A DNA stretch of 36,977 nt, taken from a virus. Shown piece by piece: positions 3,596 to 27,410 of the stretch. The notes under the pieces were generated by a model. That model ran no database searches and was not told the DNA's origin. It worked only from the letters and a program-made list of their open reading frames with translations. The DNA lies in IMG/VR virus record IMGVR_UViG_3300023240_000005, positions 1 to 36,977 of that record; one strand, written 5' to 3'. How positions within the stretch are numbered: the stretch's first letter is position 1; the number at the start of each line of letters is the position of its first letter. Made by a program: the position numbers and the translations under genes.

Positions 3596-3643
3596 TCCCC
3601 CCGAGTCTCATCCGGGGGCTTGTTATGCAAGGATCTGGGGTTC

Positions 3644-5899
3644 ATGAGCAAAAAGACCGATCAACAATCAACCAACCTAACTATGACAAAACAAGACACC
3701 AAATTGACGGAATACGATTCATTTATCAATGCAAAAACAAAGCGGGCGCAGTCCTACGGATTTGAGCCATACCCGATCACCGCTCCATTGTTCGGATGGC
3801 AGGCGCACGTCACAGAGTGGACAATCCGCAAGGGCCGCGCAGCTCTCTTTGAGGACTGCGGACTTGGAAAGACAATCCAGCAGCTTGAGTGGGCGCATCA
3901 GTGCGTGCAACATACGGGTAGGAGTTCATTGATCCTCACCCCGCTTTCCGTCGCGCATCAGACGGCGAACGAGTCAAAGAAGTTCGGGATAAATGCCCAA
4001 GTTGCAGAATCAAACGACGATATTACTGGCGTCGGGATATGGATCACCAACTACGAGAAGCTTGACAAATTCGACTGCTCGCAGTTCGCCGCAGTTGCGT
4101 TGGACGAGTCCAGCATCTTGAAAAACTTCACTGGCAAGATGCGAAAGACGCTCACCGACACCTTCGCGGAAACCCCCTACCGCCTATGCTGCACCGCGAC
4201 GCCATCACCCAACGATTATACCGAGTTCGGGCAGCATGCCGACTTCCTTGGTGTCTGCTCACCCGCGCAAATGCTGGCGACGTTCTTTATTAACGACACG
4301 TTCAACACTGGCGATTGGCGTGTGAAAAAGCATGCGGAAATGGAATTCTGGAAATGGGTGGCATCATGGGCAGCGTGTATCGGGAAACCATCAGACATCG
4401 GATTTGATGATGACGGATACATTCTCCCTCCGCTCAACATGGAGACCATCATCGTAAACGTCGATGAGGTTGCCGACGCTCAAGGCGGGGAGTTGTTCCG
4501 ACACTCCACGCTTTCCGCGACCACCATGCACAAGGAAATGCGGATGACTTCCCCGCGACGGGTTGAGGAGGTTGCAAAGCTCGTCAACGAATCGGATGAA
4601 TGCTGGATTGTCTGGTGCAATACCAACGACGAATCGGGGCAACTGGCAAAGGCTATCCCCGACGCCGTGGAGATTAAGGGCAGCAACACCAATAAGCAAA
4701 AGGAGTCCGCCGCAGATGGATTTGTGGACGGATCAATCCGAGTCCTTATCAGCAAGAGTGGGATCTTTGGCTATGGTATGAACTGGCAACACTGCCACAA
4801 CGTCGCATTCGTTGGGTTGTCCTATTCATTCGAAGACTTCTATCAGGCGCTCCGCCGCACATACCGATTCGGGCAAACCAAAACCGTCAACGCCTACATC
4901 GTCCAAGCGTCCACTGAGGGCGCGATTCTCAGGACCGTCAAACGCAAGATCAACCAACACAAAGAAATGCAAGAGAAGATGAAAATTGCCGCCGAGGCAT
5001 TCAAGGATTCAACCATGAAAGAACTGACTATGAAAAAAGACATCAACACAGCAGAGGGAGACGGATGGCAATTACACCACGGCGATTGCGTCCGAGTAGC
5101 GCAACAAATGCCCGACGAGTCCGCGGACTTTTGTGTGTTCTCGCCACCGTTCGCGGACCTGTTCACCTACTCGAATGACCTGCAGGACATGGGCAACTGC
5201 TCCGACTTGGACGAGTTCAAGGAACACTTCAGGATCCTCGTAGCCGAGATTGAGCGCGTGATGGTTCCCGGCCGCGAGGTGGCGGTCCATTGCGTTGACC
5301 TGCTATCGACGAAGTGGAAGCATGGGAAGATTGAGTTTCAGGATTTCAGCGGCGAGATCGTCCGCATGTTTTGGGATCACGGCTTTCTTTTCCATTCGAG
5401 GATCTGCATTTGGAAATCACCAGTCACCGAGATGCAGCGCACCAAGGCGCACGGTTTGCTTTACAAGACGCTAAAGGCCGACTCATGCGACAGCCGAGTG
5501 GGATGCGCGGACTATCTGCTCGTTTTCCGCAAGCCAGGGGTCAACCCCCGCCCCGTCGTCAAGGATCCGAATCAATACCCCGTCGATCTCTGGCAGGAAG
5601 TGGCCAGCCCCGTTTGGATGACTATCGACCAAGGCAACGTCCTTAACAAGCATGGTGCGAGGGACCACGCCGACGAGCGGCACATCTGCCCGTTGCAGCT
5701 CGACGTTATCGAGCGGGCGGTTGTCCTGTGGAGCAATCCCGGCGACCTTGTATGGAGCCCGTTCGCGGGAATCGGCAGCGAGGGATACAAGGCGCTGCAA
5801 CTGGATAGGCGATTCGTTGGTAGCGAGCTGAAAGAGTCCTATTTCAATCAGGCGAGCGCAAACCTCGCCAACGCCAAGGCGCAACTGACGCTGCTGTGA
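3644..5899 (+). CDS. Fusion of an SNF2/DEAD-like helicase with a beta-class N6-adenine/N4-cytosine DNA methyltransferase; an alternative TTG start lies at 3620
   Basis: Walker A GLGKT (about 3860..3874), DESS box (4103..4114) and a helicase-C region (VLISKSGIFGYGMNWQ...). These are followed by SPPF (5141..5152, motif IV) and then SPFAGIGSEG (about 5753..5780, motif I). Confidence 0.85.
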   Translation: MSKKTDQQSTNLTMTKQDTKLTEYDSFINAKTKRAQSYGFEPYPITAPLFGWQAHVTEWTIRKGRAALFEDCGLGKTIQQLEWAHQCVQHTGRSSLILTPLSVAHQTANESKKFGINAQVAESNDDITGVGIWITNYEKLDKFDCSQFAAVALDESSILKNFTGKMRKTLTDTFAETPYRLCCTATPSPNDYTEFGQHADFLGVCSPAQMLATFFINDTFNTGDWRVKKHAEMEFWKWVASWAACIGKPSDIGFDDDGYILPPLNMETIIVNVDEVADAQGGELFRHSTLSATTMHKEMRMTSPRRVEEVAKLVNESDECWIVWCNTNDESGQLAKAIPDAVEIKGSNTNKQKESAADGFVDGSIRVLISKSGIFGYGMNWQHCHNVAFVGLSYSFEDFYQALRRTYRFGQTKTVNAYIVQASTEGAILRTVKRKINQHKEMQEKMKIAAEAFKDSTMKELTMKKDINTAEGDGWQLHHGDCVRVAQQMPDESADFCVFSPPFADLFTYSNDLQDMGNCSDLDEFKEHFRILVAEIERVMVPGREVAVHCVDLLSTKWKHGKIEFQDFSGEIVRMFWDHGFLFHSRICIWKSPVTEMQRTKAHGLLYKTLKADSCDSRVGCADYLLVFRKPGVNPRPVVKDPNQYPVDLWQEVASPVWMTIDQGNVLNKHGARDHADERHICPLQLDVIERAVVLWSNPGDLVWSPFAGIGSEGYKALQLDRRFVGSELKESYFNQASANLANAKAQLTLL

Positions 5900-6132
5900 C
5901 CGAACCCATGAACAACATGAGCAAATCCCAACTGGAGGCATTCGACGACATGACCGCCGACCGCGACCGATGGCGCGACCGATTCGAGAAGCTCGACCGC
6001 GAACTCAAGTCCGAGCTGCGCGACCCCAACGGGACGATCTGGGAGCATGCGGAGAGGTTGCAGGCGGAGCTGGACAAGTTGCGGGCCGCGAACACCGAGT
6101 TGCTCAACATCCACACCGCGCCCCATGCCTAA
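5896..6132 (+). CDS. Coiled-coil hypothetical protein; GTG start overlaps the upstream TGA, with in-frame ATGs at 5908 and 5917
   Basis: ORF of 78 aa containing RDRWRDRFEKLDRELKSELRD...LQAELDKLRAANTELL. Confidence 0.5.
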   Translation: MTEPMNNMSKSQLEAFDDMTADRDRWRDRFEKLDRELKSELRDPNGTIWEHAERLQAELDKLRAANTELLNIHTAPHA

Positions 6133-12340: not shown

Positions 12341-12358
12341 GAGGAAACGAAATCATGA
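12152..12358 (+). CDS. Small RHH-like DNA-binding protein with an N-terminal GGKRAGAGRP motif, copy 1
   Basis: MKPTRGGKRAGAGRPPGSGHGRTVDSSSISLTPDLWGKLDKLRRDQSRSAFLAAKLRKM...; beta-strand then helix-helix pattern. ATGA coupling to both neighbours. Confidence 0.5.
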   Translation: MKPTRGGKRAGAGRPPGSGHGRTVDSSSISLTPDLWGKLDKLRRDQSRSAFLAAKLRKMRPKPEETKS

Positions 12359-13302
12359 CCGCCGATTTGGCCGGTGAGGTAATGGGAGCGATGTCTTGTT
12401 CTGTGCTGGGGGCGGATCGCCACATCATTCCAATCTCGGGCAAGGACTCGCTCGCTACGGCTATCGTCCAGACGGCACGCGAACCGGATCTAAACTACGA
12501 ATACATCTATAATGATACTAAGATGGAGCTTCCAGAAACCTATGAGTGGATGGACAAGGTGGAAAAGGTGATGGGAATCAAGATCATCCGATCAGGAAAG
12601 AGCCTACGGACGATCATCGAAGAGCAAAAAATACTCCCATCGCCGATGACCAGATTTTGCACGAAGTATGCAAAAATCTTCCCGATGCGCGACTACATCG
12701 GAAAAGATAAGGCCACTCTCTACATCGGTATTCGCGCCGACGAAGATCGACCAGGCGCACAGGAAACCAAGAATATCCATGTGAAATACCCGCTAAAAGA
12801 AATGGGGGTGAATCTCGCACTCGTCTATCGGCTGGTCGAAGAGAGAGACCTGATGCCGCCCGGATTCTTCTGGCAGCGGATCTATGATATGGTCGTCGCT
12901 CAACTAGGCGATCAAGCAGGGATCATCCAAGAAATTCCGAAATGGATATTCGACCGCACCTTCGCGTGGCGCTCGCGTCCGAACTGCTACATGTGCTTCT
13001 ACCAGCGGATGTATGAATGGTGCGGGATGCTGGAACATCACCCGCTTCTCTTCGCGGATGCGGAGGACATCGAGGCCCGACACGGCTTCTCAGAACACAC
13101 GAAAAGCCATGCCTTCCTGTGGCTCGGAAAGGACAAACCACTCTCGCACATCCGCGACAACGCCGAGCGGATTATTCAGGCACGGGTAGATAAAATCTGC
13201 AAGATCCTACGGAAACGCCTGCAAATGGAACTCTTCACTGACGCGCTCTGCGACGAACTTGAAGCCGCGCAAACATCCTGCGGCATGTATTGTGGCAAAT
13301 GA
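12355..13302 (+). CDS. PAPS reductase / PP-loop ATP pyrophosphatase family protein (DndC-like fold class)
   Basis: PP-loop-like ISGKDS (12436..12450), RFCTKYAKIFP and GIRADEDRPG motifs. Cys clusters NCYMCFYQ and C-terminal SCGMYCGK. GC is visibly lower than the flanks. Confidence 0.75.
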   Translation: MTADLAGEVMGAMSCSVLGADRHIIPISGKDSLATAIVQTAREPDLNYEYIYNDTKMELPETYEWMDKVEKVMGIKIIRSGKSLRTIIEEQKILPSPMTRFCTKYAKIFPMRDYIGKDKATLYIGIRADEDRPGAQETKNIHVKYPLKEMGVNLALVYRLVEERDLMPPGFFWQRIYDMVVAQLGDQAGIIQEIPKWIFDRTFAWRSRPNCYMCFYQRMYEWCGMLEHHPLLFADAEDIEARHGFSEHTKSHAFLWLGKDKPLSHIRDNAERIIQARVDKICKILRKRLQMELFTDALCDELEAAQTSCGMYCGK

Positions 13303-14320: not shown

Positions 14321-14824
14321 ATGAAAGAAAATCCCACAAAAAGGAAGAGCCCGATTCCTCCGCCTCCTCGTCCGAGGAAGAAAATCGGGGATGAGCTGCC
14401 GCATGTTGCGACCTCGATGAAAGCTGGGGCGTTGGCGTGGGGCTTGCCGATCAGCGAGATTAGGCGGGCGCGGACGGGGGGGTGCAAGGCGTTCGTGGGG
14501 CAGAAAGTTTATCTCGACGGGCTGACGGCTTGGCTTACGGCGAATCCCCCGGAGCCCGCGAGTGGGGGAGGGGAGTCCCTTGATGACGCGGACAAGGAGG
14601 AGTTGGAGAGGAGGAAGCTGATCCGGGTGGTCAATCGGTTGGACATCGGGATTCAATCCGACCGGCACAAGCTGGCGGTGACGAAGGACGAGTTCGTGTC
14701 GAAGGAGCTGGTCAAGGAGGAATGGGCGCGCCTTTGGGCGATCATTGAGGCGGAGGCGAAAGACCTGATGGACAAGTCGATATTCCCCGTTTTTGTGGCG
14801 AGGGTGAAGGCGAAAATCAAATGA
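14321..14824 (+). CDS. terS: Putative terminase small subunit
   Basis: It sits immediately upstream of terL and is ATGA-coupled to it. N-terminal HTH-like segment (AGALAWGLPISEIRRARTGGCKAFVGQKVYLDGLTAWL) followed by a charged helical region. Confidence 0.55.
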   Translation: MKENPTKRKSPIPPPPRPRKKIGDELPHVATSMKAGALAWGLPISEIRRARTGGCKAFVGQKVYLDGLTAWLTANPPEPASGGGESLDDADKEELERRKLIRVVNRLDIGIQSDRHKLAVTKDEFVSKELVKEEWARLWAIIEAEAKDLMDKSIFPVFVARVKAKIK

Positions 14825-16668
14825 CCGATACCGAATACCTCCGCGAGACGTTCGACGGGATTGTGCAGACACCGTTCCAGGGCGATATTATGGAGTGGTC
14901 GGATGGGAAATTGAAAATCCCGTATTCAGTTCGGTATCCGATTTACATTGCAAGCGAATCGCCTTGGCTGATTGAGACGCTTAGAGCGTTATCAGATCCA
15001 AAGATTCGGCGCGTCGATGTGAGGATGCCAGCGGGAGCAGCGAAGTCGCTTATCGGGGAGATCCAGATTGCCCATTGCCTAGCGGAAGATCCGGGATTGT
15101 ATTACTACGTATGGCAAACGGATGATGACGCAAAAGACGCGATGGAGGATCGCATTTACCCGATGATCGAGGCGAACGAATTCCTCGCGAAACGGATGCC
15201 TGTTGATCGGAACAAGAAGCGTGGGATGAAGATCGCGGCCCCGCACATGAGCCTTTACGCGGTGGGGGCAAATCTTTCGGCGGCCCAGTCGAAGCGGGTG
15301 AAGTGGTTGACGATGGAGGAGCCGCACCTTTACGGACCTGGGATGATGACGGCTTTCGAGAAGCGAGTTGAAGGGGTGAAAGATTACAAGATCCTGACCC
15401 TATCGACTGGCAGCGTTCTAGGCGATGAGTCGGACGATTCTTTTAATGCAGGTTCATGCGACGTATGGCAAGTGCCGTGCCCTTATTGTAATCAGTTTCA
15501 AACGATGAGCGATCACAAGGATAGGCTTAGATCAAAAATTGATAAGGATACCTGCGACGAGAACGGGGATTACAACTGGTCTAAAATCCTGCCCACCGTC
15601 CGATATAATTGCGAGCATTGCGGAATGGACTGGCCGACCGATGAGGCTTCAAGAAAAGATCAATCGCAACTAGGCAGATACATCTCTACGAATCCGAACG
15701 CGCCAGAAGATCACAGATCGTTCCACATGGAGGCGGTATCAGTGCATTATTTCCCATTGCCAAAGCTATTGATGGAGAAGATCCGCGCAAGTTACGCGGC
15801 AAAGCGTGGAGCAATGGAGCCCCTGAAGGACTACATTCAGAAACGGAGGGCGATGGCTTGGGATGAATCTCCTATCGACTCCGACCAAGACGCGGCCTTT
15901 GATCGGTCGAAAGGCAACTATCACAAGCGGGAGGATTTTGAGGGAGAGAAAACGCGGTTTATCTGTATCGACAACCAAGCGGGGAAGGCGTCTCGGGGAG
16001 AGGGAGCGCATCGTTGGTATGTGTGTCGCGCGTTCGGCGCGGACGAGTGCCGCCTGATCGATGAGGGCAAGATCACGTCGTGGGAGGAGATGGAGGAGAA
16101 GCGGATTGAGTTGGGGGTTGAGACGGGTCGGACGCTGGTGGACATCGCGTTTGACACGGCGGCGGTGCAGGCTGTGTGCGTTCGCTACGGGTGGATGGGC
16201 CTTTGGGGCGACATGACGAACAAGCGTTCGTTCCCGCATCATGAGCCGGTGACGGTGAACGGGAAGCCCGATAGGCTCACGCGGAACTATCCGTTCTCTC
16301 CGTCGAACATCGGGCATGTGGGGATCGGGAAAGAAGGGATTCGGCGGCAGGCTCGTTACTTTTTTTGGTGTCAGAATCCTATCAAGGACATGTATCATCG
16401 GCTCCGGCTGGGGATGAGTACTTACCGATGGACGGTTCCGCAGGACGTCTCGGAGGATTACCGAAAGCAGACGCAAGCGGAATACAAGACGATCACCATC
16501 GAGAAGAAGACGGGGCGGAAGGTGCGGGCGTATAAATCCAAGGGGGACAACCACCTTGGGGACTGCGACCAGATGTGTCTGGTGTCAGCGATCATGGACC
16601 CGAATCTGAGGGCGTTGCTGTGGGGTGCGGAGGACGAGAAAGAGGATGAGGAGGAAAAAAAGGGTTGA
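14821..16668 (+). CDS. terL: Terminase large subunit, lambda GpA-like
   Basis: 615 aa. P-loop-like MPAGAAKS, acidic LTMEEPH, and the GpA-style zinc module CPYCNQFQ...NCEHCG. Confidence 0.85.
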   Translation: MTDTEYLRETFDGIVQTPFQGDIMEWSDGKLKIPYSVRYPIYIASESPWLIETLRALSDPKIRRVDVRMPAGAAKSLIGEIQIAHCLAEDPGLYYYVWQTDDDAKDAMEDRIYPMIEANEFLAKRMPVDRNKKRGMKIAAPHMSLYAVGANLSAAQSKRVKWLTMEEPHLYGPGMMTAFEKRVEGVKDYKILTLSTGSVLGDESDDSFNAGSCDVWQVPCPYCNQFQTMSDHKDRLRSKIDKDTCDENGDYNWSKILPTVRYNCEHCGMDWPTDEASRKDQSQLGRYISTNPNAPEDHRSFHMEAVSVHYFPLPKLLMEKIRASYAAKRGAMEPLKDYIQKRRAMAWDESPIDSDQDAAFDRSKGNYHKREDFEGEKTRFICIDNQAGKASRGEGAHRWYVCRAFGADECRLIDEGKITSWEEMEEKRIELGVETGRTLVDIAFDTAAVQAVCVRYGWMGLWGDMTNKRSFPHHEPVTVNGKPDRLTRNYPFSPSNIGHVGIGKEGIRRQARYFFWCQNPIKDMYHRLRLGMSTYRWTVPQDVSEDYRKQTQAEYKTITIEKKTGRKVRAYKSKGDNHLGDCDQMCLVSAIMDPNLRALLWGAEDEKEDEEEKKG

Positions 16669-17423: not shown

Positions 17424-17630
17424 TTTTCCACCACAACACTGCACAGCACGGCACCCCACAACACAACACGACACGACAACCGCTTTTCCGGCACCACACC
17501 GCACTGCACTGCACGTCACCCCACAACACAACACGACACGACAACCGCTTTTCCGCCACGCCACGCCACTTCACCCCACAACACGCCACGCCACGCCACG
17601 CCACAACCCGACCCGACACGACAACCCTTC
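17424..17630. repeat. Upstream arm of the C/A-only repeat array: 2 exact 22-mer cores plus 1 degenerate
   Basis: CGACACGACAACCGCTTTTCCG at 17469..17490 and 17534..17555. A degenerate copy lies at 17608..17630. TTTTCC sits at 17424, right after the stop. Confidence 0.9.
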
Positions 17631-17643
17631 TACCAAAAAAAAT

Positions 17644-18132
17644 ATGAACACAGATACCAAGCCAATCGCAACAATCGGCCTCGACGCCCAACTCATCCGC
17701 AAGCGGATCGAGTCAATGGAGGTAGGCGAAATCGTCTCCTATTCCGATCTTGAGGAAATCACCAAGCGTCCCCTGAACGAACTCCGGGGAAGTTTCTACA
17801 CCGCCGCCCGGCAGGTCTTCCGGGAGTTCGGCTGGACGTTCGGACCAGTCAAGGGAGTCGGATACAAGCGCCTCGACGCCGCCGAAAAGCTCGATACCGT
17901 CGAAGGCAAGCGAAAGCACATCCACAAGACGGCGCGTCGGGCGGGAGCCGTGTTGGCTTCGATCAAGGTCTCGGAACTGCCGCAAGAGCAGCAGGTGAGG
18001 CACAATCTTGAGGTGTCATTCGCGGGAGCGATTGCGCTGGCCACCGGGAAGAAAGCCACGCGGTTGATTGCCGAAAAGGCGGCATCGGCTCCACTCCCCG
18101 GCATCGAAGTTCTCTCGCTTTTCGCCAAGTAG
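17644..18132 (+). CDS. Winged-helix-like DNA-binding protein embedded in the repeat array
   Basis: Internal ATG after an A8 leader. IVSYSDLEEITKRPLNELRGSFYTAARQVFREFGWTFGPVKGVGYKRL resembles a wHTH with a GYxRL wing. Confidence 0.55.
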   Translation: MNTDTKPIATIGLDAQLIRKRIESMEVGEIVSYSDLEEITKRPLNELRGSFYTAARQVFREFGWTFGPVKGVGYKRLDAAEKLDTVEGKRKHIHKTARRAGAVLASIKVSELPQEQQVRHNLEVSFAGAIALATGKKATRLIAEKAASAPLPGIEVLSLFAK

Positions 18133-18730
18133 CTTTTCCGCCACTGCACTGCACCCCACTTCACTTCACTTCACAACCCGACACGACCCGACACGACAAC
18201 CGCTTTTCCGTCACAACACATCACAGCACACCACACAACACCACACCACAACCCGACCCGACACGACAACCGCTTTTCCGGCACCGCACGGCACAGCACA
18301 TCACCCCACATCACAACCCGACACGACAACCGCTTTTCCGACACATCACGGCACTCCACCACACTGCACTACACCTCACGCCACGACCCGACCCGACACG
18401 ACAACCGCTTTTCCGTCACAACACATCACAGCACTTCACATCACCTCACTACCCGACCCGACACGACAACCGCTTTTCCGCCACGCCACAGCACTTCACA
18501 TCACCTCACTACCCGACCCGACACGACAACCGCTTTTCCGACACCCCACTGCACTTCACACCACTTCACCCCACAACACAACCCGACACGACAACCGCTT
18601 TTCCGGCACCTCACCGCACTGCACCGCACGTCACCCCACAACACAACCCGACACGACAACCGCTTTTCCGCCACGTCACTGCACTGCACCCCACTTCACT
18701 TCACTTCACAACCCGACCCGACACGACACG
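18132..18730. repeat. Downstream arm of the C/A-only repeat array: 8 exact 22-mer cores plus truncated and degenerate ends
   Basis: Cores start at 18189, 18259, 18319, 18394, 18459, 18519, 18584 and 18649, spaced 70/60/75/65/60/65/65 bp. The variable segments are phased NCACN pentamers. Confidence 0.9.
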
Positions 18731-18743
18731 CCCCCCCGAGCCG

Positions 18744-19763
18744 TTAATAAATCACCCTTGCGTCAACCACCGAATCCGCCGAGTTCGTGTTCTCGGTGAC
18801 GATGAAGCGCAGGAACTCGGTCGGCAGGGTGAACAGCGCGAACGTGGTTGTCCCCGCCCCTAGCGTCAACTCCCCCTCCTCCGTGTCGAGCCAGTTGACT
18901 TGATCCGTCGCGGTCTGGAACTTGACCTTGATCGCCAGCTCGTTGTAGATGCGGTAGGCGGCGATCCTCCCGCCGACTGCGACCGTTACCGACGTTGCCA
19001 GAAGCTTTCCTGGGAGCGTGTCGGTTAGGTGATCCTCGCTGGCAAACGTGATCGAGTTTTCCGTCGTGGCCACGGTGGGGGAAAGCGAAAAGAGCAACGT
19101 CCCGTCCACCCCGCCCATCGCAATCCGCTTTGCGAAGTTGGCAGCCGACTCGGTCATGACGGCCGCGAGTTGGCGCAGGCACGGGACGCGGTCGGTTAGG
19201 GTGACGACGGTGGTGTCCACGGTGGCGGAATAGATCGGATGCGCGAGAGTTCTGGCGAAATAGTCTGGCCCTGAAGTCCCGTCGGCATTGATGGCCCGCT
19301 TGAGTGCCAGCATGGTGTCGGTGGCCGAGGCCCCGATTTGGACATCGTAGGCGGCGGCCATCGTGGTTTTGAATCGGTAGGTCCGCTTAAAGTTTGCGTC
19401 ATCGATGCCCACTACCAGCGTGTCTCCGTCTGAGGGATTGGAAATCGCCGCAACGTCACCAATGGCGGCGGTCCCCTCCGAATAGCATCGGATGTTCCCG
19501 CTGGGCGTTCCGCTGGCCGCGCCACGGGTGATGGCGGTAAATTCTCTGGTGGAAATCTTCTCGGCCAGCCCGTATCCTGTCAAATTGGCGGAAATCGTCT
19601 CAACCTCAGGAGCGTCGCTGATGGTCCCGTAAACCTTGAGCGAGGTCACTTCGGTGGCCAAATCCTGCCGAACAACGATTAGGGTGGCGGCTGCGGGCTG
19701 GGTGGTGATGGGGTTGGCCCCTGACGTTCGGAAGGCGGAGGAGGACATTTCGAGACAATCCAC
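18744..19763 (-). CDS. Hypothetical beta-rich protein, the only convincing minus-strand gene; possible jelly-roll/carbohydrate-binding-like C-terminus; alternative start at 19748
   Basis: ORF of 339 aa containing DGDTLVVGIDDANFKRTYRFKT...IGASATDTMLALKRAINADG. It ends FLRFIVTENTNSADSVVDARVIY. Confidence 0.6.
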   Translation of the reverse strand: MDCLEMSSSAFRTSGANPITTQPAAATLIVVRQDLATEVTSLKVYGTISDAPEVETISANLTGYGLAEKISTREFTAITRGAASGTPSGNIRCYSEGTAAIGDVAAISNPSDGDTLVVGIDDANFKRTYRFKTTMAAAYDVQIGASATDTMLALKRAINADGTSGPDYFARTLAHPIYSATVDTTVVTLTDRVPCLRQLAAVMTESAANFAKRIAMGGVDGTLLFSLSPTVATTENSITFASEDHLTDTLPGKLLATSVTVAVGGRIAAYRIYNELAIKVKFQTATDQVNWLDTEEGELTLGAGTTTFALFTLPTEFLRFIVTENTNSADSVVDARVIY

Positions 19764-19836: not shown

Positions 19837-20100
19837 ATGGCAGTCAAGCAGACCTTGGTTGGGCTGGATGCAGCTGATTTAGAGGCGATTAGAGACGCCT
19901 GCAAGGGTTGCATCATCGCCCAGACAGTCCGAGGGGTGTCATACACCATCGCGGGGAGAAGCTTCTCTTTCCCCTCCTTGGAGTCTGCGGCCAACATGCT
20001 CCAAGAGGCAAATTACGCCCTTGGACTGCTTTCTGGGACCTTCGCCCAGGTGGTCAGGGCCAACTTCAATCCCGGCATGGGTAGGGGGAGGCGCGGATGA
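19837..20100 (+). CDS. gpW-like head-tail joining (head completion) protein
   Basis: Small protein immediately upstream of a lambda-type portal and ATGA-coupled to it. LEAIRDACKGCIIAQTVRGVSYTIAGRSFSFPSLESAANMLQEANYAL resembles the lambda W pattern. Confidence 0.5.
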   Translation: MAVKQTLVGLDAADLEAIRDACKGCIIAQTVRGVSYTIAGRSFSFPSLESAANMLQEANYALGLLSGTFAQVVRANFNPGMGRGRRG

Positions 20101-23100
20101 AAGAGTTCCGCCCAAACCTCCTAGACCGCGCCGTCTCGGCCATCGCCCCCGCAGCAGGGATGCGTCGGATGGCGGCGCGGCAAGCTCTCCACCTGCTCAG
20201 TTACGACGGGGCGCGGCAATCCACAAAGCGATCCTCCGCCCCCCAAAACATCTCCCCGAACAGCTTCGATGTCCAGCGGGACCGATTGCAGCTCATGCGG
20301 GAGGCCGAAGACCTAGAGCGGAACTTTGCCCCAGCAAAGCACCTCAACCGGAAATATGCGCTCTATACCTCCCCGATCAGCTACCATGCGGCAACGGGTG
20401 ACAGCGGGCTAGACAAGGAAGTTGAGGCGTATCTGAACGATGAGGTTTTTCCGAATTGCGATGTCACCGGCCGCTTCGATTTCTTCAAAATGATGGAGTT
20501 CGGGGTGATGGGGTGCAATCGGGGAGGAGATTACGGATGGGCGTTTCTCCGCCCCGAGTTGGAAGAGGGGATGAGCGAGGAGGAGGCGTTGCAGCTCGAC
20601 CTAAAGATTCAGGCGGTTGAGCCGGATCGTATCGGCGGGATCTATCAGAACGTAGTTTCCAACGACTATGTTTCTGGATGTATCATCGGGGCCTATGGAG
20701 GGATTGACGCCTTCCGCGTGTTCCATCGGAGCATGACGACGAGCGTTTACGACAATCCCGTGGACATCCCGGCTGACCAGTTCGTGCATTTGGTTGACCC
20801 GATGCGGATCGACATGTATCGGGGTGTTTCTGTCCTCTCGACCGCCGTCCAGAATCTGCGGGACATCTACGAGATGGTGGACTCTGTTAAGGGCAAGGCG
20901 AAGTTGGCAAGTGCTCTAACAGTATTTACAAACTCCAACGGGGCCACGGTGGGAAGCGGGGCATTCGACCCCTACGGGACGACGGTTGACCAGTCTGGTG
21001 GATCGTCAGCATTGCAGCAGGACATCGCATTTGGGCAAATCAACCACCTTGCGGCGGGTGCGGACATCAAGTTTCCAACCAGCAATTCCCCTTCTTCCGA
21101 GGAGCAGGCGCTGATTACCCTGCTCCTGAAGTTTGTGGCGATGAGCTACGGGCTCCCCTACTCTTTCGCGCTGGACGCATCAACCCTTGGCGGCGTCAGC
21201 AGTCGCCTAGAGTCCGAGATGGCCAAGGCTGAATTTGAGCGCGGCCAGCGCGTCCTTTCGCCGCACGCCCATCGGATTAAGAACACGTTCCTGATTGACG
21301 CCATCGCCAAGGGGGTTTTCCCCATCGAGGTGTTGGGACAGATCACGAAGGGGCGTTGGGGATACAGACCGCATCCTCAACCCGACATCGGCAAGGAAGC
21401 GTCAGCGGCCGTCAATCTCTACCAGAGCGGCCTTCTCGACCCGATGAAGCATTGGGTGGACAACGCGCAAGACCCCGAGGCGGTGGCGGATGCGATGGCG
21501 CGTTGGGCGATCATCAAGCGCGACACGGCCAAGCGGCATGGCCTTGACGAGCAGGCTGTATTCGGGGCAGGTCCAGCGAAGCCTCTATCCCAGACGGAGA
21601 GCGCCACCGAGAGCACGACCATTGACGCTGCCAAAAAGGAGCTTTCCCGCCACGAATTCGCCAAGGAATCAACCGAATCGATGCGGCAGCGCGTGGCCGA
21701 CAAAGAGAAGGCGGGCAAAGACGTTGCATCCGAGAAGGAGGCATTGATTGCGGACTTGCGATCAAAGGAATCCAGCGGGGCCGATGCAAAGGAAATCCAA
21801 GCGGGGAGGGTGGCAATTGACCGCATTAAAAGCGATTTAGAAGACGCCTATGGGGAGCTTCGCAGGGCCAGGGCGATTCTGACGAAGCGGGAGACAGATG
21901 AAGGAGCAACCGACAAAGCAAAGACGCCGAATAAGGCGAATGCGAAGAATCGGGACGAGATCCACGCCTTTGTCGAGGCGCTGAAAGGGCAAGGATACCC
22001 AGAGCAGGAAGCCTACGCCATCGCCTACGACATCGTGGACAGCGGCAAATTTTCATGGAGCAAGCTACCTGCCAACATTCAGGCGAAATACAATCTGGAG
22101 CGGAAGGAATTCAAATCCAACCCGATCTTCAACGAAGAAGATCATTCTCGGGATGATGACGGCAAGTTCGGTCCAGGCGGAGGAGGCGGAGGAGGATCTA
22201 GCAGCAAGGACGATACTAAATCCAGAGCAGACTACAGAAGCTCCAGAGCATCCGTAGGAAATATGAAGCAAGCTAAAGTTACAGGTGAAGGAGAGAACGC
22301 AACTCTAACGATGAGCGATGGGAGACCTCTGCCTGCTCATATAAAACCTTCGATGATACCCCCAGCGTATCGTCATGATATGCAAATCGCGACAGACAAG
22401 GATTCTGATGTTTGGGCAATCAGCCGAGACGAAAAAGGAAGCTCCAAGAGGGTATATAACCCTGCTTACTCGGAAAGGCAGAAAGAGACCAAATGGGCAA
22501 GAGTGAATAATGGAGTTGCTGAGTCACAAGCAATCCGCTCTAAGATACATAACGACATCAATCAGGGAGAGAACAAGGAAGAGGCGGCTGCGACATGGCT
22601 CATGTCAATGCAGGCGACTCGGCCCGGAAGTGAGAGTGACACCAAGGGGAGCAAGGCACTATGGGAAGTGCCGATCACAGCGGAGAACGTAACCATCATC
22701 CCCTCGAAAAACTCCAAGGATCTACCGAAAGTAGTTCTTCAGGTTGGAGACGATCAGATTCCGATCAGGGACGAAGCAGCAAGGAGGGAAATTCTATCCC
22801 GTGTCGAGTCTGGCAAAGAATTTAGGGACGCGGGATATTGGATTAAATCCTACGGAGCAACAACGCTAGAGGGCAGGCACGTTATTCCAGACGGCGACGG
22901 GGTGAGGTTGCAGTTCATGGGCAAGGAGGGGGTTTGGCATGATCACAAGATTTCTGACCAGAACCTTGCGAAGAATCTGCTGGATCGGAAGCAGCAATCA
23001 GGAGACGGGGGTAAGCTGTTTAATACGGATTACGCCAAGGTTTCAAAATACACCAACTCGCTAGGGAGCGGAATCTACAGTGCTAAAGACCTCCGCACGA

Positions 23101-23303
23101 TTCGCGCAAACGAGCTGGCATCGGACATCATCGGGTCATCGGCGCGAGAGTTTGACTCGGACGCTGACAGGAAAAGCTTCATCAAGGACGTGGCAATCAA
23201 GGTTTCGGGAGTCCTCGGAAATAAACCTCAACAAGCACTTGAATCGTATATCAATCCCGCCGTCTTCGACGCGCTGAAAGTATCTAACAAAAAAGCAGCA
23301 TGA
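20097..23303 (+). CDS. Portal protein (lambda gpB-like) with a long C-terminal extension ending in a topoisomerase-IB-like domain
   Basis: The portal call rests on position and the N-terminal pattern (SYDGARQSTKRS...RDRLQLMREAEDLERNFAPAK). For the C-terminal motifs see the findings. Confidence 0.8.
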   Translation: MKEFRPNLLDRAVSAIAPAAGMRRMAARQALHLLSYDGARQSTKRSSAPQNISPNSFDVQRDRLQLMREAEDLERNFAPAKHLNRKYALYTSPISYHAATGDSGLDKEVEAYLNDEVFPNCDVTGRFDFFKMMEFGVMGCNRGGDYGWAFLRPELEEGMSEEEALQLDLKIQAVEPDRIGGIYQNVVSNDYVSGCIIGAYGGIDAFRVFHRSMTTSVYDNPVDIPADQFVHLVDPMRIDMYRGVSVLSTAVQNLRDIYEMVDSVKGKAKLASALTVFTNSNGATVGSGAFDPYGTTVDQSGGSSALQQDIAFGQINHLAAGADIKFPTSNSPSSEEQALITLLLKFVAMSYGLPYSFALDASTLGGVSSRLESEMAKAEFERGQRVLSPHAHRIKNTFLIDAIAKGVFPIEVLGQITKGRWGYRPHPQPDIGKEASAAVNLYQSGLLDPMKHWVDNAQDPEAVADAMARWAIIKRDTAKRHGLDEQAVFGAGPAKPLSQTESATESTTIDAAKKELSRHEFAKESTESMRQRVADKEKAGKDVASEKEALIADLRSKESSGADAKEIQAGRVAIDRIKSDLEDAYGELRRARAILTKRETDEGATDKAKTPNKANAKNRDEIHAFVEALKGQGYPEQEAYAIAYDIVDSGKFSWSKLPANIQAKYNLERKEFKSNPIFNEEDHSRDDDGKFGPGGGGGGGSSSKDDTKSRADYRSSRASVGNMKQAKVTGEGENATLTMSDGRPLPAHIKPSMIPPAYRHDMQIATDKDSDVWAISRDEKGSSKRVYNPAYSERQKETKWARVNNGVAESQAIRSKIHNDINQGENKEEAAATWLMSMQATRPGSESDTKGSKALWEVPITAENVTIIPSKNSKDLPKVVLQVGDDQIPIRDEAARREILSRVESGKEFRDAGYWIKSYGATTLEGRHVIPDGDGVRLQFMGKEGVWHDHKISDQNLAKNLLDRKQQSGDGGKLFNTDYAKVSKYTNSLGSGIYSAKDLRTIRANELASDIIGSSAREFDSDADRKSFIKDVAIKVSGVLGNKPQQALESYINPAVFDALKVSNKKAA

Positions 23304-23479
23304 AATTAGTAAACCTACCAGTTGAAATCTCATGGGGAGATAAAGAACCAGAAGCAAAAGCGGAGCCACACACGGAGGATGACGAGTTACACGATTCGGA
23401 GGATGCCACTCAGGAAGAAAAAGACCACGTCAAATCAGTTCTAGGATTCGACCTAAACGAACTTTTCAAAGATGAATAA
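23300..23479 (+). CDS. Small acidic protein, 59 aa; below the ORF-track cutoff
   Basis: ATGA-coupled to the portal stop. MKLVNLPVEISWGDKEPEAKAEPHTEDDELHDSEDATQEEKDHVKSVLGFDLNELFKDE. Confidence 0.35.
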   Translation: MKLVNLPVEISWGDKEPEAKAEPHTEDDELHDSEDATQEEKDHVKSVLGFDLNELFKDE

Positions 23480-24488
23480 CATGACAAGCACCCACCACTT
23501 CGCATCAATGGAACGCTCGATTGTCATGGTCGCCGAGGGGGTGATTCGCGCAGCGTCGCTCATCACAAAAGGCGAGGCCACGGGACATTTCGACGACAAA
23601 GGAAGGCAAGTCGTCATTGACGACGTGACCCTTGAGCAGCTTTTCAACGTCTGCAAAAAGCTCGGAAAAATCAAGGTGAAGGCCGACCACGGAAGCGGGG
23701 TCATGGCAACGGTCGGATGGGCTGACAGCTTCTGCCTCACATCCGACAAGGTTCTTGCTGACCTACACCTCTACGACTCCGAACCCTCCCGCCCCCGACT
23801 GCTTGAGATCGCAGACAAGAACCCGAATCACATCGGGATCAGCATGGAGTTCAACGGCAAGGACAAGCCGAGCGGCAAAATCTGCTTGGCGCGATGCTCC
23901 GAAGTGTTTTGCGCGGCCATCGTGAGCGACCCCGCAGCCAACAAATCTTTGTTTCAAATCCCAGAAAAGGAGGAGGAGCAAGAACCTGAAACCAAACCAA
24001 ACCAAACCAACATGGAAAACGAAGAAACCACCGAAGAGCCCACCTTGCAAGACTGCATGGCGAGGCTTGAAGAAATCGGCACGCGGTTGACGGCTCTTGA
24101 GACGCCTGCCGATGCTGACAACGAAGAAGACAAGGGACTTGAAGAAGATCCTGAAGTCGTCGCTACCGACCCCGAATCCCAGCCCGCCGAGCCTGAGAAG
24201 GTTGAGGTGGACGAGGAGAAGAAGATCGAGCTTGCCGCCAGGCGCGGGGCAGAGATGGCCATTAAGGCTTTCTCCGCAAAGCTCGGCATCACCAAGCTCG
24301 GGAAGCCTGGGGCAGCCAGCCAATCCAAGCCGACCACGAAGCACTTCGCTGAGTTCGTCGCGGATGAAGCACTTGCCAATCACGACGGCGACCAAGTCAA
24401 AGCCACGGCTCACATTCTCTCCAACAAAGCCAAGTTTGGCGATGCGTGGAAGGCATACGAGTCCCAGCGCACTGTTAAAACCGCCTAA
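23472..24488 (+). CDS. Prohead protease (HK97/S78-like) fused to an acidic scaffold-like C-terminal region
   Basis: KVKADHGSGVMATVGW (His motif) and NHIGISMEFNG (Ser motif), then a long E/D/P-rich helical tail. It lies between the portal and the capsid genes. Confidence 0.6.
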   Translation: MNNMTSTHHFASMERSIVMVAEGVIRAASLITKGEATGHFDDKGRQVVIDDVTLEQLFNVCKKLGKIKVKADHGSGVMATVGWADSFCLTSDKVLADLHLYDSEPSRPRLLEIADKNPNHIGISMEFNGKDKPSGKICLARCSEVFCAAIVSDPAANKSLFQIPEKEEEQEPETKPNQTNMENEETTEEPTLQDCMARLEEIGTRLTALETPADADNEEDKGLEEDPEVVATDPESQPAEPEKVEVDEEKKIELAARRGAEMAIKAFSAKLGITKLGKPGAASQSKPTTKHFAEFVADEALANHDGDQVKATAHILSNKAKFGDAWKAYESQRTVKTA

Positions 24489-24897: not shown

Positions 24898-25863
24898 ATG
24901 GCCTATACCAATGCACAAGCCACGCCGCGAAGCGATATTTACGCTCTCGCGATGCAGGCAAACGCCGACTTCAATCAACTCTGCATCGCTGACAAGATTT
25001 TTCCTGTCAAGGGAGAGGACGTGAAGCGCGGCATCTACATGCGGGCGAAGCTCGCTAACGCGGAACTGCTTAACGGAGACGCTAAGCCACGCGCAGCAGG
25101 AGACGGTTACAACCGAATCAACCGCAAATACGATACCGACACATACGATGCCGAGGAATACGGCCTGGAGGGAGTCATCGATGATTCCTACGAGGCCGAG
25201 ACGGAGCGGTTCATGAACCTTGAGGCCACGGAGGCCGCTCTTCTTGAGCGTTCCCTCCGCATCTCCTACGAGGTCCGAGTCGCCGCAAAGTTGATGAGTT
25301 CATCCACGTTCACCGCCACATCTGCGGCCGTAAACTACACGGAAGCCAACTTGGCTACCATCAACGTCCCCGCCGACGTGGCCGCCGCTAAACTGCGGAT
25401 GCTGAAAAACGGCCTGATTCCGAACGCAATCGTGATGAGCGCGAACGTTTACGAGCGGATCTCTCGTTCGACGTTGCTTCAAAACCAAGTGTTTGGAGTC
25501 GTCCCGAAGAGCGCGGGGCAATACCTCATTCCATCGGATGCGGACATTGCGAACGCGCTCACGGTTTCCAACATCTATGTTGGACGCGCCCCGAAGAACT
25601 CGGCCGCGAAAAACCTATCCTACTCGGGAGCGTTCATCTGGGGCGACACATACATTGCCGTTTGCCAGATCAACGGCGGCGAATACACGGCGGGCGGAGT
25701 CGGGCGGACTATCCAGTGGACCAAAGACACCACAGGACTGTTCACCCCCGAGACCTATCGCAGCGATGAGCGTCGGTCCAACATCCTCCGCGTGCGTCAG
25801 CATGTGGCGGAAAAGGTGATCGATGAAACCGCGTGCGAACTCATCACCACCAGCTACTCCTAA
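24898..25863 (+). CDS. Major capsid protein (lambda gpE-like)
   Basis: 321 aa. Supported by position in the head module, the A/C-rich leader, and the strong hairpin that follows. Confidence 0.75.
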   Translation: MAYTNAQATPRSDIYALAMQANADFNQLCIADKIFPVKGEDVKRGIYMRAKLANAELLNGDAKPRAAGDGYNRINRKYDTDTYDAEEYGLEGVIDDSYEAETERFMNLEATEAALLERSLRISYEVRVAAKLMSSSTFTATSAAVNYTEANLATINVPADVAAAKLRMLKNGLIPNAIVMSANVYERISRSTLLQNQVFGVVPKSAGQYLIPSDADIANALTVSNIYVGRAPKNSAAKNLSYSGAFIWGDTYIAVCQINGGEYTAGGVGRTIQWTKDTTGLFTPETYRSDERRSNILRVRQHVAEKVIDETACELITTSYS

Positions 25864-25878
25864 CCGATAGCGCAACCA

Positions 25879-25908
25879 TTCCCGCCCCCATCTTTCAGGG
25901 GGCGGGAA
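25879..25908 (+). terminator. Strong hairpin after the major capsid gene (terminator or attenuator)
   Basis: TTCCCGCCCCC (25879..25889) pairs perfectly with GGGGGCGGGAA (25898..25908), loop ATCTTTCA. The downstream CCTTTC is only a weak U-tract. Confidence 0.55.
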
Positions 25909-25916
25909 CCTTTCAT

Positions 25917-27410
25917 ATGAAAATCATTCTATCAGCAATTGCAGGGAACGAGGAGGCGGTCATTGAACGATTCGTCAGATCGTTTGCGCCAGCCGTGGAC
26001 GAGTTCGTTTTTGTCCGAGCCATTGGGATCCAAGAACCAGACGAGACCGTCGAGATCATCCGCCGAACGTGTTCGGAGTTGGGCAAGGTGGCCGATTTCC
26101 TGACCTACGAAAACAAGACCGAGTTTTGCCATGTGGACAATTTCGGGACGGCGCGGCAGTTGTCGCTAACAGCGGCCGCAGACGGAGCGGAAGAGGGGGA
26201 TTACATCATTTGGGCAGATGCCGACGATGTTCTCATTGACGGCGGGGCCGAGGAGATTCGGGCGGCGGCAGAATCAGGGAGCCATGAAGTTTTTCTCATG
26301 CCCTACCATGTCCGAGGGGACAAACAAGTCGTATGGCGGGAGCGGATGGTCAAGGCCGATCTAGGGGCGCAATGGGAACATGCCATCCATGAACAGATGA
26401 TTTTCCCGCGAGAAGTCTCCTACCGAATGATCCGGGGAGCGGTCATTGAGCACTCCCCACTCGACGCCAAGGCGGGGGGGCATGAGCGGAACCTTGCCAT
26501 TCTTCAATCGGAATTGCGGGACACGCCAAGGAATATGTTCTACCTCGCGCAAGAGCTTTTCCAGAACGGGAAGCTGCGGGAGTTCCGCCCGATTGCCGAG
26601 GCCGCGCTTGTCATTCCCAGCATGGACACGCTGGAGCGTTACGAGATCCTGATGCAGCTCGCCCAGACGCCAGGGACCAAGTCGAAGGATTTGGCGGCGT
26701 CAGCATTCGCCCTCATGCCAGATCGACGGGAGGCGCTGGCGCTGCTCACCAACTACGCCATCATTGACGGAGACCACGCCAAGGCGCTGAGCCTTGCCGA
26801 CGTGATGATGTCCATCCCCAAGCCGAGGAAGACATACTGGAGCTTGAACAACGAGTGGTATGGCTGGAAGGGAGATGAGCTTTTCCGCCAATGCCTCCGC
26901 CTGAATGGGAGGGAGGACGCAGCCGATGACCATTGGCAAGAATCCAACCACCCCGATCACCCGACATTTTCCATCATCCACGCCACGCTTGATCGCCCAG
27001 ATCAGGCGCTAGCAGTCCGCGAGATGTGGCTGTCCCGCGCATCCCGCCCCGAGAACGTCGATTACGTGTTCGGGATCCACAATCATGACAAGCGCAGCCT
27101 GAACGTCCTGAGTGGGATCAAGCACACCGAGACGGAACTGCTCGGATCGTCTCCGAATTGGGACGTGGCGGCGGGTGCGGCAGTTGGGGGAATCATCGTC
27201 CAGGCGTCCGATGACGGCTGGCCTCCGCAGGGATGGGATGACTCGATTCTCTCCCTAATCCCAGACGTGACGCGGCCCGTGTTTCTGGCAGGAGACGGGC
27301 ATGAGAGGACGGAGCTTCCAAACCACGCGATCATGACGAGGGCCTACATGGAGATCAATGCAGCCGTAACCCTACGAAACTCTACGCATCCAGTCGTTAA
27401 ATCCGCATGA
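25917..27410 (+). CDS. Family-2 (GT-A) glycosyltransferase with a helical repeat region and a second Rossmann-like domain
   Basis: MKIILSAIAGNEEAVIERFVRS..., DxD-type IIWADADDVL (26214..26228), a TPR-like helical middle, and a second module FSIIHATLDRPDQALAV... Confidence 0.7.
   Translation: MKIILSAIAGNEEAVIERFVRSFAPAVDEFVFVRAIGIQEPDETVEIIRRTCSELGKVADFLTYENKTEFCHVDNFGTARQLSLTAAADGAEEGDYIIWADADDVLIDGGAEEIRAAAESGSHEVFLMPYHVRGDKQVVWRERMVKADLGAQWEHAIHEQMIFPREVSYRMIRGAVIEHSPLDAKAGGHERNLAILQSELRDTPRNMFYLAQELFQNGKLREFRPIAEAALVIPSMDTLERYEILMQLAQTPGTKSKDLAASAFALMPDRREALALLTNYAIIDGDHAKALSLADVMMSIPKPRKTYWSLNNEWYGWKGDELFRQCLRLNGREDAADDHWQESNHPDHPTFSIIHATLDRPDQALAVREMWLSRASRPENVDYVFGIHNHDKRSLNVLSGIKHTETELLGSSPNWDVAAGAAVGGIIVQASDDGWPPQGWDDSILSLIPDVTRPVFLAGDGHERTELPNHAIMTRAYMEINAAVTLRNSTHPVVKSA

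Follow-up and report, generated by a model that had tools for sequence, protein, structure and literature searches.

A portal protein ending in a type IB topoisomerase

The window analysed here, a 36,977-nt viral DNA (IMG/VR record IMGVR_UViG_3300023240_000005), encoded a phage portal protein carrying a type IB DNA topoisomerase (TopIB) at its C-terminus. Both parts lay in a single open reading frame (ORF) of the ORF list (20097..23303, + strand, 1068 aa). In Pfam searches with the whole protein, PF05136 (Phage_portal_2) matched residues 49–356 (E 4.5e-29, 102.2 bits vs. a cutoff of 32.9) and PF01028 (Topoisom_I) matched residues 917–1044 (E 1e-10); the C-terminal part alone matched PF01028 at E 6e-12 (45.8 bits vs. 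a cutoff of 23.7). The N-terminal half was a portal in PHROGs (phrog_21, E 1.6e-39). Against TIGR01539, the lambda gpB equivalog, the ORF scored 63.4 bits, below the cutoff of 172.7, indicating by sequence that it is a member of the PF05136 family and not a lambda gpB equivalog.

The full-length protein was modelled with AlphaFold2 (AF2; predicted local distance difference test, pLDDT, 72.9). The best PDB matches of the portal core were lambda portal structures (8xot, 8xow and 8k39, E 7e-9). Helices of a C-terminal extension (526–559, 564–602, 611–631, 636–648 and 659–669) were predicted with pLDDT >90, and were followed by a flexible stretch (aa 668–716, pLDDT <50) containing a junction motif and a Gly hinge, and then by the folded TopIB. 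Profiles, two AF2 models and fold searches concurred and supported an architecture of portal, helical linker, Gly/Ser hinge and TopIB. A portal with a C-terminal TopIB had been proposed in an initial annotation of the window, and was confirmed by Pfam (including the PF01028 score above its cutoff), profiles, AF2 and fold searches (including superposition of the model on variola TopIB, below). Two boundaries in that annotation had to be moved: its feature start, 22171, missed the reading frame by one base (first base of the codon, 22170), and the hinge that it placed at 22171..22199 was in fact KFGPGGGGGGGSSS, aa 690–703, nt 22164–22205. The segments of the gene and its small neighbour were as follows.

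20097..23303 (+): complete fusion gene of portal and TopIB, 1068 aa and a stop codon (ORF list; identical product P0251)
20097..21566 (+): portal core of the lambda gpB family, aa 1–490 (PF05136, phrog_21, fold match to lambda portal structures)
21672..22103 (+): C-terminal helical extension of the portal, a hairpin (aa 526–602) and an end-domain (aa 611–669) (AF2 model; also in cargo-less sister portals)
22134..22169 (+): junction motif EEDHSRDDDGKF, aa 680–691 (sequence; pLDDT <50)
22170..22205 (+): Gly7-Ser3 hinge, aa 692–703 (sequence; low pLDDT at aa 691–716)
22230..22460 (+): pre-module beta strands and predicted TopIB N-terminal DNA-binding domain with IPPAY, aa 712–788 (AF2 pLDDT 93–98; alignment)
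22461..23282 (+): TopIB catalytic domain, aa 789–1062 (PF01028, profile vs. 2f4q, Foldseek, pentad)
22635..22850 (+): clade-specific insert of ~72 aa, aa 847–918 (DSSP of the model; spacing histogram)
23300..23479 (+): small acidic partner ORF, 59 aa (gene calls; homologues beside the TopIB stop codon)

Identity and active site of the C-terminal module

Searched as a single sequence, the module gave E 5e-16 with the TopIB of Deinococcus radiodurans (2f4q), where one stretch covered the N-terminal domain with IPPAY and another the catalytic domain, and E 0.02 with vaccinia/variola TopIB. A family profile, made from an alignment with 107 homologues, matched 2f4q at E 3e-43 (chain residues 40–302) and variola TopIB at 4e-15. 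The module's N-terminal domain aligned to residues 40–98 of Deinococcus TopIB, and PF21338 (Top1B_N_bact) was found in relatives. An AF2 model of residues 712–1068 had a pLDDT of 96 and a predicted template modelling (TM) score of 0.90. In a Foldseek search of the PDB, the top 22 matches of this model were all TopIBs, spanning both domains, and the best superposition was with DNA-bound variola TopIB (2h7f; TM 0.58/0.65, root-mean-square deviation 4.6 Å). Matches in a viral structure library were TopIBs of poxviruses and giant viruses, along with topoisomerases that jumbo phages Motura and PaBG encode as stand-alone proteins.

Site-specific tyrosine recombinases and protelomerases had to be considered as well: tyrosine recombinases have a catalytic fold in common with TopIB, and weak Foldseek matches to XerH and integrases (E 0.03 or worse) were seen. 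However, all of the 22 best PDB matches were TopIBs, the Lys and Asn positions were typical of bacterial TopIB, and the Pfam match was to Topoisom_I, not to an integrase family. The ranking of folds, with the TopIB-type N-terminal domain (IPPAY here, PF21338 in relatives), led to the rejection of such an enzyme, which we regard as highly improbable.

All motifs listed in the initial annotation were present, but SAKDLRT, which it started at 23082, began at 23079. On the + strand they were as follows.

22356–22370 (+): IPPAY (sequence)
22617–22634 (+): TRPGSE, R842 at 22620; the profile aligned it to FR137VGSD of Deinococcus TopIB
22854–22883 (+): GATTLEGRHV (sequence)
22914–22931 (+): FMGKEG, K943 at 22923, aligned to K174 of Deinococcus TopIB
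23079–23099 (+): SAKDLRT, R1000 at 23094, aligned to R239 of Deinococcus TopIB
23214–23228 (+): LGNKP, N1042 at 23220, aligned to N280 of Deinococcus TopIB
23241–23258 (+): ESYINP, Y1051 at 23247–23249, aligned to Y289 of Deinococcus TopIB

The pentad R-K-R-N-Y was kept in 265 of 270 distinct relatives, including all 97 with an N-terminal carrier of at least 400 aa. Its integrity here and in these 97 argues for selection on catalysis. Judged from sequence and model, the module is a bacterial-type TopIB with an intact-looking catalytic set. An intact set had been claimed initially, and the first Arg had been chosen correctly despite an insert, as the alignment of RPGSE to FR137VGSD indicated. 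This insert of ~70 aa, also noticed at the outset, was real: the first Arg and GATTLEG were 78 aa apart, vs. 10–19 aa in canonical members. It was common to 95 of the 270 relatives, marking a sub-clade, and was modelled as a small beta-sheet with helices.

Reality of the fusion

The exact 1068-aa protein (P0251) was on record from JGI, Logan, ENA and Metaclust, and an identical product was called on at least 23 independently assembled contigs (28–37.7 kb), which came from different ENA samples and had the same genes around it. In-frame fusions of 59–72% identity were found (P0121, P0253, P0260 and P0282); of these, P0121 (865 aa), at 59%, lay on a 30-kb contig that was syntenic. Further in-frame relatives were P0297, P0309 and P0315. 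Neither a slippery site nor a well-placed internal start was seen in the junction DNA of the window. With the identical ORF on at least 23 contigs and clean junction DNA, an artefact of assembly or frameshifting was rejected for the window; these contigs and the 59–72% identical in-frame fusions likewise excluded, at the DNA level, the missed stop or frameshift that the initial annotation had raised.

At one locus (L001) portal and TopIB were encoded by separate ORFs, split at an A8 tract (5966–5973; whole feature 5966–5986), and this TopIB was the closest relative of the module (67% identical). The portal ORF of L001 ended ...GAT GAT AAA AAA AAG ATG AAA GCA TAG, and from the dnaX-type slippery heptamer A_AAA_AAG the −1 frame was open into TopIB. 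The hypothetical −1 product was colinear with the in-frame fusion of another locus, L007, whose portal matched that of L001 at 380 bits; since the two ORFs are colinear with this in-frame gene, the fused state is taken as ancestral. No significant RNA structure was found downstream of the heptamer (z = 0.43), and an in-frame A_AAA_AAG at the portal/TopIB overlap occurred only in L001 among the loci examined. Programmed −1 frameshifting as a general route to the fusion was thus rejected, resting as it would on one case without a stimulatory RNA structure. The split in L001 is ambiguous between programmed slippage, a real one-base indel and a homopolymer error; if the slippage were programmed, a minority of portal subunits would bear cargo.

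The split ORFs of L001 were what spoke for a pseudo-fusion, by a missed stop, a frameshift or chimeric assembly, or for a decaying and functionless passenger. Since they were colinear with the in-frame L007 gene, and given the identical ORF on contigs from different samples, the in-frame fusions in related and unrelated phages and the pentad kept in 265 relatives, this explanation was refuted at the DNA level and is hardly credible.

A mobile cassette behind a conserved junction motif

The GC content, and that of third codon positions (GC3), were 0.590/0.722 for portal aa 1–500, 0.546/0.665 for the linker and 0.506/0.533 for aa 692–1068. Just 1.4% of equal-sized segments in the 36,977 nt were as low in GC as the cassette, and the lower GC of the module noted by eye in the initial annotation thus held on measurement (0.506 vs. 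0.590 for the portal). Among 120 sister portals, 103 were without cargo, 7 carried TopIB and 10 carried the junction motif followed by other cargo (DUF5824, a GNAT acetyltransferase, or domains without assignment). The 103 cargo-less portals ended ...AYAIAYDIIESGKFxxSKLPxxIQKKYYP, at about residue 666 of the window protein. P0122 was ~60% identical to window residues 4–696, diverging right after FDESKHPRGDNGEFGSG. This modular presence and absence, together with the atypical GC and GC3, indicated that the TopIB cassette is a horizontally mobile addition to a complete portal. A relatively recent fusion, as first suggested, agreed with the GC drop, the 103 cargo-less sister portals and the other cargo found after the same junction motif.

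The junction motif had been missed in the initial annotation, as had the small acidic partner ORF. Its consensus was F-x-E-S-(E/D)-H-P-R-(A/D)-x-D-G-K-F-G-x-G-G-G, and it occurred once in the six frames of the window. By a strict pattern it stood ahead of TopIB in 40 of 220 distinct contexts, ~32-fold above background. It also headed many stand-alone TopIB ORFs and preceded the non-TopIB cargo in sister portals, and was noted in L003, L006, L021, L025, L028, L051, L072 and P0122–P0125. At ~18% of contexts it was rejected as a universal tag. Its role might be that of a processing site, an address tag or a joint for recombination. In P0294 and P0295 the motif was internal to the portal tail.

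A small acidic partner ORF

The ORF at 23300..23479 encoded 59 aa (isoelectric point 4.3; MKLVNLPVEISWGD...KSVLGFDLNELFKDE, with a C-terminal ...VLGFDLNELF), and its ATG overlapped the TopIB stop codon (ATGA). It was called as a gene on 28 contigs. It had no Pfam family and no name, and a word search gave one homologous cluster only. By iterative search, homologous acidic segments ending ...DV(I/V)xxLGFDPxE were found to begin a few bases from the TopIB stop codon in most loci, whether TopIB was on a lambda-type portal, on Phage_portal_3, on another carrier or stand-alone; in some loci the segment was fused to the next protein or to TopIB itself. A composition-independent check with the pentapeptide [LIVMA]LGF[DS], covering the ORFs of 87 loci (825,023 aa in total), gave 71 occurrences, of which 58 lay within −150 to +400 nt of a TopIB stop; several apparent misses were TLGFD variants. 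The ORF thus adjoined the TopIB stop in at least 58 of the 87 loci.

The LGFD motif was absent from all six frames of four TopIB-less control loci with close portals (two cargo-less, two with other cargo), in which the portal gene directly abutted a 330-aa head gene. This absence, and the position of the partner beside the TopIB stop, indicated that TopIB and the LGFD ORF form a two-gene cassette. The arrangement mirrors that of toxin-immunity pairs: the downstream small gene co-varies with the C-terminal domain. We know of no protein inhibitors of TopIB.

Some relatives had an ORF after TopIB that joined the LGFD segment to other small modules: in L012 (7053–7709) to an ...AYAIAY...KLPxxIxxKYY helical domain, the portal C-terminus of the window lineage, and in L010 (7050–7688) to a DUF5824-like tail. 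Small domains are thus shuffled as modules.

Carriers and distribution

Relatives of the TopIB module were encoded on at least 182 viral contigs of IMG/VR. Carriers were surveyed in 45 distinct carrier proteins from IMG/VR and, as a second set, in 50 long carriers among representatives (from an exhaustive search of 1.84 billion representative proteins). In 53 of the 80 best IMG/VR loci the module stood at the end of an ORF with an N-terminal extension of at least 200 aa. Carriers and co-domains in the two sets were as follows.

Phage_portal_3: 18 of 45 in IMG/VR; 1 of 50 representatives
Phage_portal_2: 10 of 45 in IMG/VR; 7 of 50 representatives
Phage_portal: 2 of 45 in IMG/VR; 5 of 50 representatives
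Portal_Mu: 1 of 45 in IMG/VR; 16 of 50 representatives
Phage_Mu_F: 4 of 45 in IMG/VR; 1 of 50 representatives
InPase: 2 of 45 in IMG/VR; not listed in representatives
2H / LigT phosphoesterase: 1 of 45 in IMG/VR; 6 and 3 of 50 representatives
ART-PolyVal: 1 of 45 in IMG/VR; 1 of 50 representatives
Acb1 (anti-CBASS): not listed in IMG/VR; 2 of 50 representatives
C39 / Mx peptidases: not listed in IMG/VR; present in representatives
GNAT: not listed in IMG/VR; present in representatives

NUDIX was also among the co-domains. Unfused TopIB was encoded directly after the portal gene in L001 and L004, and a MuF-TopIB fusion directly after the portal in L002. The fusion is a widespread and recurrent architecture on four portal families, not a one-off. 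Giant metagenomic proteins of 2.4–3.1 kaa (P0158, P0134 and P0191) joined TopIB to ART-PolyVal or exotoxin-type ADP-ribosyltransferases, or to an SNF2 helicase with a LAGLIDADG insertion.

None of the deposited phages (50,697 records) had this clade; translated searches (tblastn) with the module gave one weak match, and no close portal relative was found there. No close copy was present in 185,579 species-representative bacterial genomes (GTDB), in which 31 loci of at most 33% identity were mostly contigs of metagenome-assembled genomes or chromosomal TopIBs. The clade is so far metagenomic only. Full-text literature searches combining topoisomerase IB with portal protein or MuF found no paper describing a portal-TopIB or MuF-TopIB protein, in line with the initial view that such a fusion was undescribed, and head-carried TopIB cassettes are apparently a large, undescribed set.

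Possible function

On balance we favour, with some reserve, a role of the TopIB as an effector that is packaged in the head on the portal, has a partner or inhibitor, and is delivered with the DNA. In portals, the crown at the C-terminus points into the capsid. Fusion to the portal would load the enzyme into every head, nominally in up to 12 copies, beside the DNA end that is packaged last and ejected first. A placement at the DNA channel in 12 copies had likewise been inferred in the initial annotation; the region of the tether is flexible and could be a processing site. The enzyme would be freed at this flexible junction and exit with the DNA. TopIB needs neither ATP nor Mg2+, so it could act as a cofactor-free swivel early in infection, relaxing supercoils in the genome that enters, in the host chromosome or in both. 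The acidic partner may hold it inactive, as a DNA mimic or an immunity-like inhibitor, or may chaperone it in the producing cell. Vaccinia virions contain packaged TopIB, and loss of the enzyme lowers early transcription.

By analogy, delivery is suggested by the co-domains (ART, 2H/Acb1 and SNF2), which use cytoplasmic substrates and match a repertoire considered to be packaged and injected. Packaging and injection have been inferred for polyvalent proteins of this kind, portal and MuF fusions of PBECR, 2H and InPase domains among them (Iyer et al. 2017, PMC5512222), and MuF (SPP1 gp7) binds the portal and is located in the head (PMC5576092). Several points weigh against delivery. A 40-kDa domain that is still tethered cannot get to the cytoplasm, and no prohead protease or peptidase was recognised beside the portal-TopIB gene, so release from the portal is hypothetical. 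Twelve copies of 40 kDa would have to fit, as is plausible, within a head for ~37 kb. The junction motif, in only ~18% of contexts by the strict pattern, is no universal processing or address signal, and the role given to the partner rests on its position and charge.

The same lack of a recognised protease fits a TopIB that stays tethered to the crown inside the capsid, clamps the channel DNA and relieves the torsion of packaging or ejection. The in-frame, constitutive fusion on at least 23 contigs is also in its favour, as are the many portals among the carriers (31 of 45 in IMG/VR and 29 of 50 representatives), which are not ejected proteins; a flexible tether of ~50 aa with the helical extension would let the clamp reach DNA above the crown, and an enzyme independent of ATP and Mg2+ suits the capsid interior. 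However, 103 of the 120 sister phages package their DNA without the cassette, which is therefore not required for packaging; the module is likewise found as a stand-alone protein, fused to MuF and within giant polyvalent proteins whose ART, Acb1/2H and SNF2 domains must work in the cytoplasm; and a dedicated acidic partner or inhibitor is hard to explain for a purely structural role. We consider a resident swivel of this kind unlikely. The enzyme might instead sit covalently (by a 3′-phosphotyrosyl bond) or tightly on an end of the linear DNA, holding the leading end at the portal and/or shielding it, as it enters, from exonucleases of the host such as RecBCD. The Tyr nucleophile and the rest of the pentad are intact, the portal is, from its topology, the probable site of the first-ejected end, TopIBs form suicide adducts near duplex ends, and a gpA-type terminase implies linear DNA with defined ends. 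Yet no sign of a specific site was seen at the genome ends. CCCTT, the cleavage pentamer of pox and bacterial TopIBs, was mildly depleted genome-wide (61 observed in the window vs. 81 ± 8 in shuffles) and TCCTT was not (83 vs. 77 ± 10), the CCCTT bias being too weak to interpret. One enzyme per end would be enough, the fusion gives up to 12, and the link with multi-effector polyvalent proteins would be left unexplained; capping or anchoring of the genome end is accordingly very unlikely.

A bolder proposal, speculative and with the odds well against it, is that TopIB and the LGFD ORF are a portable two-gene "topology module" that plugs onto any head-internal carrier via the ExxHPRxxDGKF-Gly junction. 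On portals it would be a cofactor-free swivel at the packaging and ejection channel, gated by the acidic DNA-mimic partner, and would represent a previously unknown mechanical component of DNA translocation in tailed phages. The clade might also be the "missing viral TopIB group" that has been proposed as the source of bacterial TopIB (Forterre and Gadelle, PMC2647321). Whether the TopIB of bacteria is of viral origin is an old question, to which the clade adds data.

Under the favoured reading of a delivered effector, a DNA topoisomerase would be a new class of phage-head cargo, enzymes acting at the onset of infection being already known in heads. To our knowledge, phage biology has paid little attention to type IB enzymes. 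The conserved active site and the recurrence on four portal families suggest that, in many uncultured phages, selection acts on the topology of the DNA as the genome enters or leaves. Sister phages with and without the cassette form a natural comparison set, and the cassette offers a defined catalytic Tyr, a candidate TopIB inhibitor and a motif that may serve as a boundary or address when foreign proteins are to be loaded into capsids.

Comparison with known systems

The module resembled Deinococcus TopIB (2f4q/3m4a) in its two-domain fold and in an R-K-R-N-Y site with Asn at the His/Asn position, and this enzyme gave the best Foldseek E-values. Unlike Deinococcus TopIB, it is the C-terminal cargo of a portal and not a free cellular enzyme; additional beta strands at its N-terminus, the ~72-aa insert behind the first Arg and an acidic partner ORF further set it apart. 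Poxvirus TopIB (2h7f, 1a41), the best overall superposition, is likewise a viral TopIB carried in the particle (as predicted here), but it is 16% identical, has His for Asn and is a free core protein of a eukaryotic virus with no fusion to a structural protein.

The polyvalent and MuF effectors (PMC5512222; Jamet et al. 2017, PMC5576092) share with the window gene a head-internal carrier, a variable C-terminal enzyme and cargo swapped between carriers, as well as co-occurring ART-PolyVal, 2H, InPase and peptidase domains and a small downstream gene as in toxin-immunity pairs. The word "topoisomerase" occurs only in the reference list of PMC5512222 and is absent from PMC5576092, and neither paper mentions the junction motif or the LGFD partner. 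Jumbo phages (Motura, PaBG, phiRSL1 and Lu11) encode a stand-alone "phage-specific topoisomerase I" with the TopIB fold (Foldseek E 7e-9 to 2.5e-8), but these are free proteins of 540–560 aa, 13–16% identical and encoded outside the head module; Iyer et al. (2021, PMC7824862) treat them together with genes of replication and recombination.

Lambda gpB (8xot, 8xow, 8k39) has in common with the portal here PF05136, the best fold match (aa 1–~500) and the gene order of gpA-type terminase, small gene, portal and head genes. It differs in being only ~17% identical and in having neither the ~170-aa helical C-terminal extension nor the cargo cassette.

Genome context and other features of the window

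The window was a tailed-phage genome with an O-like initiator, a DnaB helicase and an Erf recombinase as replication genes and an endolysin near its end. In the head module, the portal-TopIB gene came after a gpA-type large terminase (14821–16668) and a small gene; behind it were a head gene of 338 aa, a gene of 116 aa and that of the major head protein (24898–25863, phrog_1005). No second portal was found among the large ORFs of the window. The 338-aa ORF downstream of TopIB (23472–24488) had no Pfam, PHROG, NCBIfam or PDB sequence match.

A tandem 65-bp unit (8.2 copies, 77% match, core ...CGACACGACAACCGCTTTTCCG...) was present at 17437–17607 and 18184–18728, flanking an ORF (~17650–18132) between the terminase and portal genes. 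These arrays lay on a strongly C-rich strand (GC skew ~−0.6) and may represent iterons, a site for packaging or a regulatory array. A 339-aa ORF without Pfam, PHROG or NCBIfam match (18744–19763, −) lay on the strand opposite to the otherwise + packaging and head module, and was kept in sister phages L118–L125 (325–334 aa, also on the minus strand).

A family-2 glycosyltransferase gene (25833–27410, +) directly followed the major head protein gene, a position kept in L006 (13815–15533), L124 and L125; capsid glycosylation might be its function. The early region encoded a 759-aa helicase/DNA-methyltransferase-like fusion (3620–5899, +) and a PAPS-reductase-domain protein (12355–13302, +); both may have roles in DNA modification or anti-restriction.

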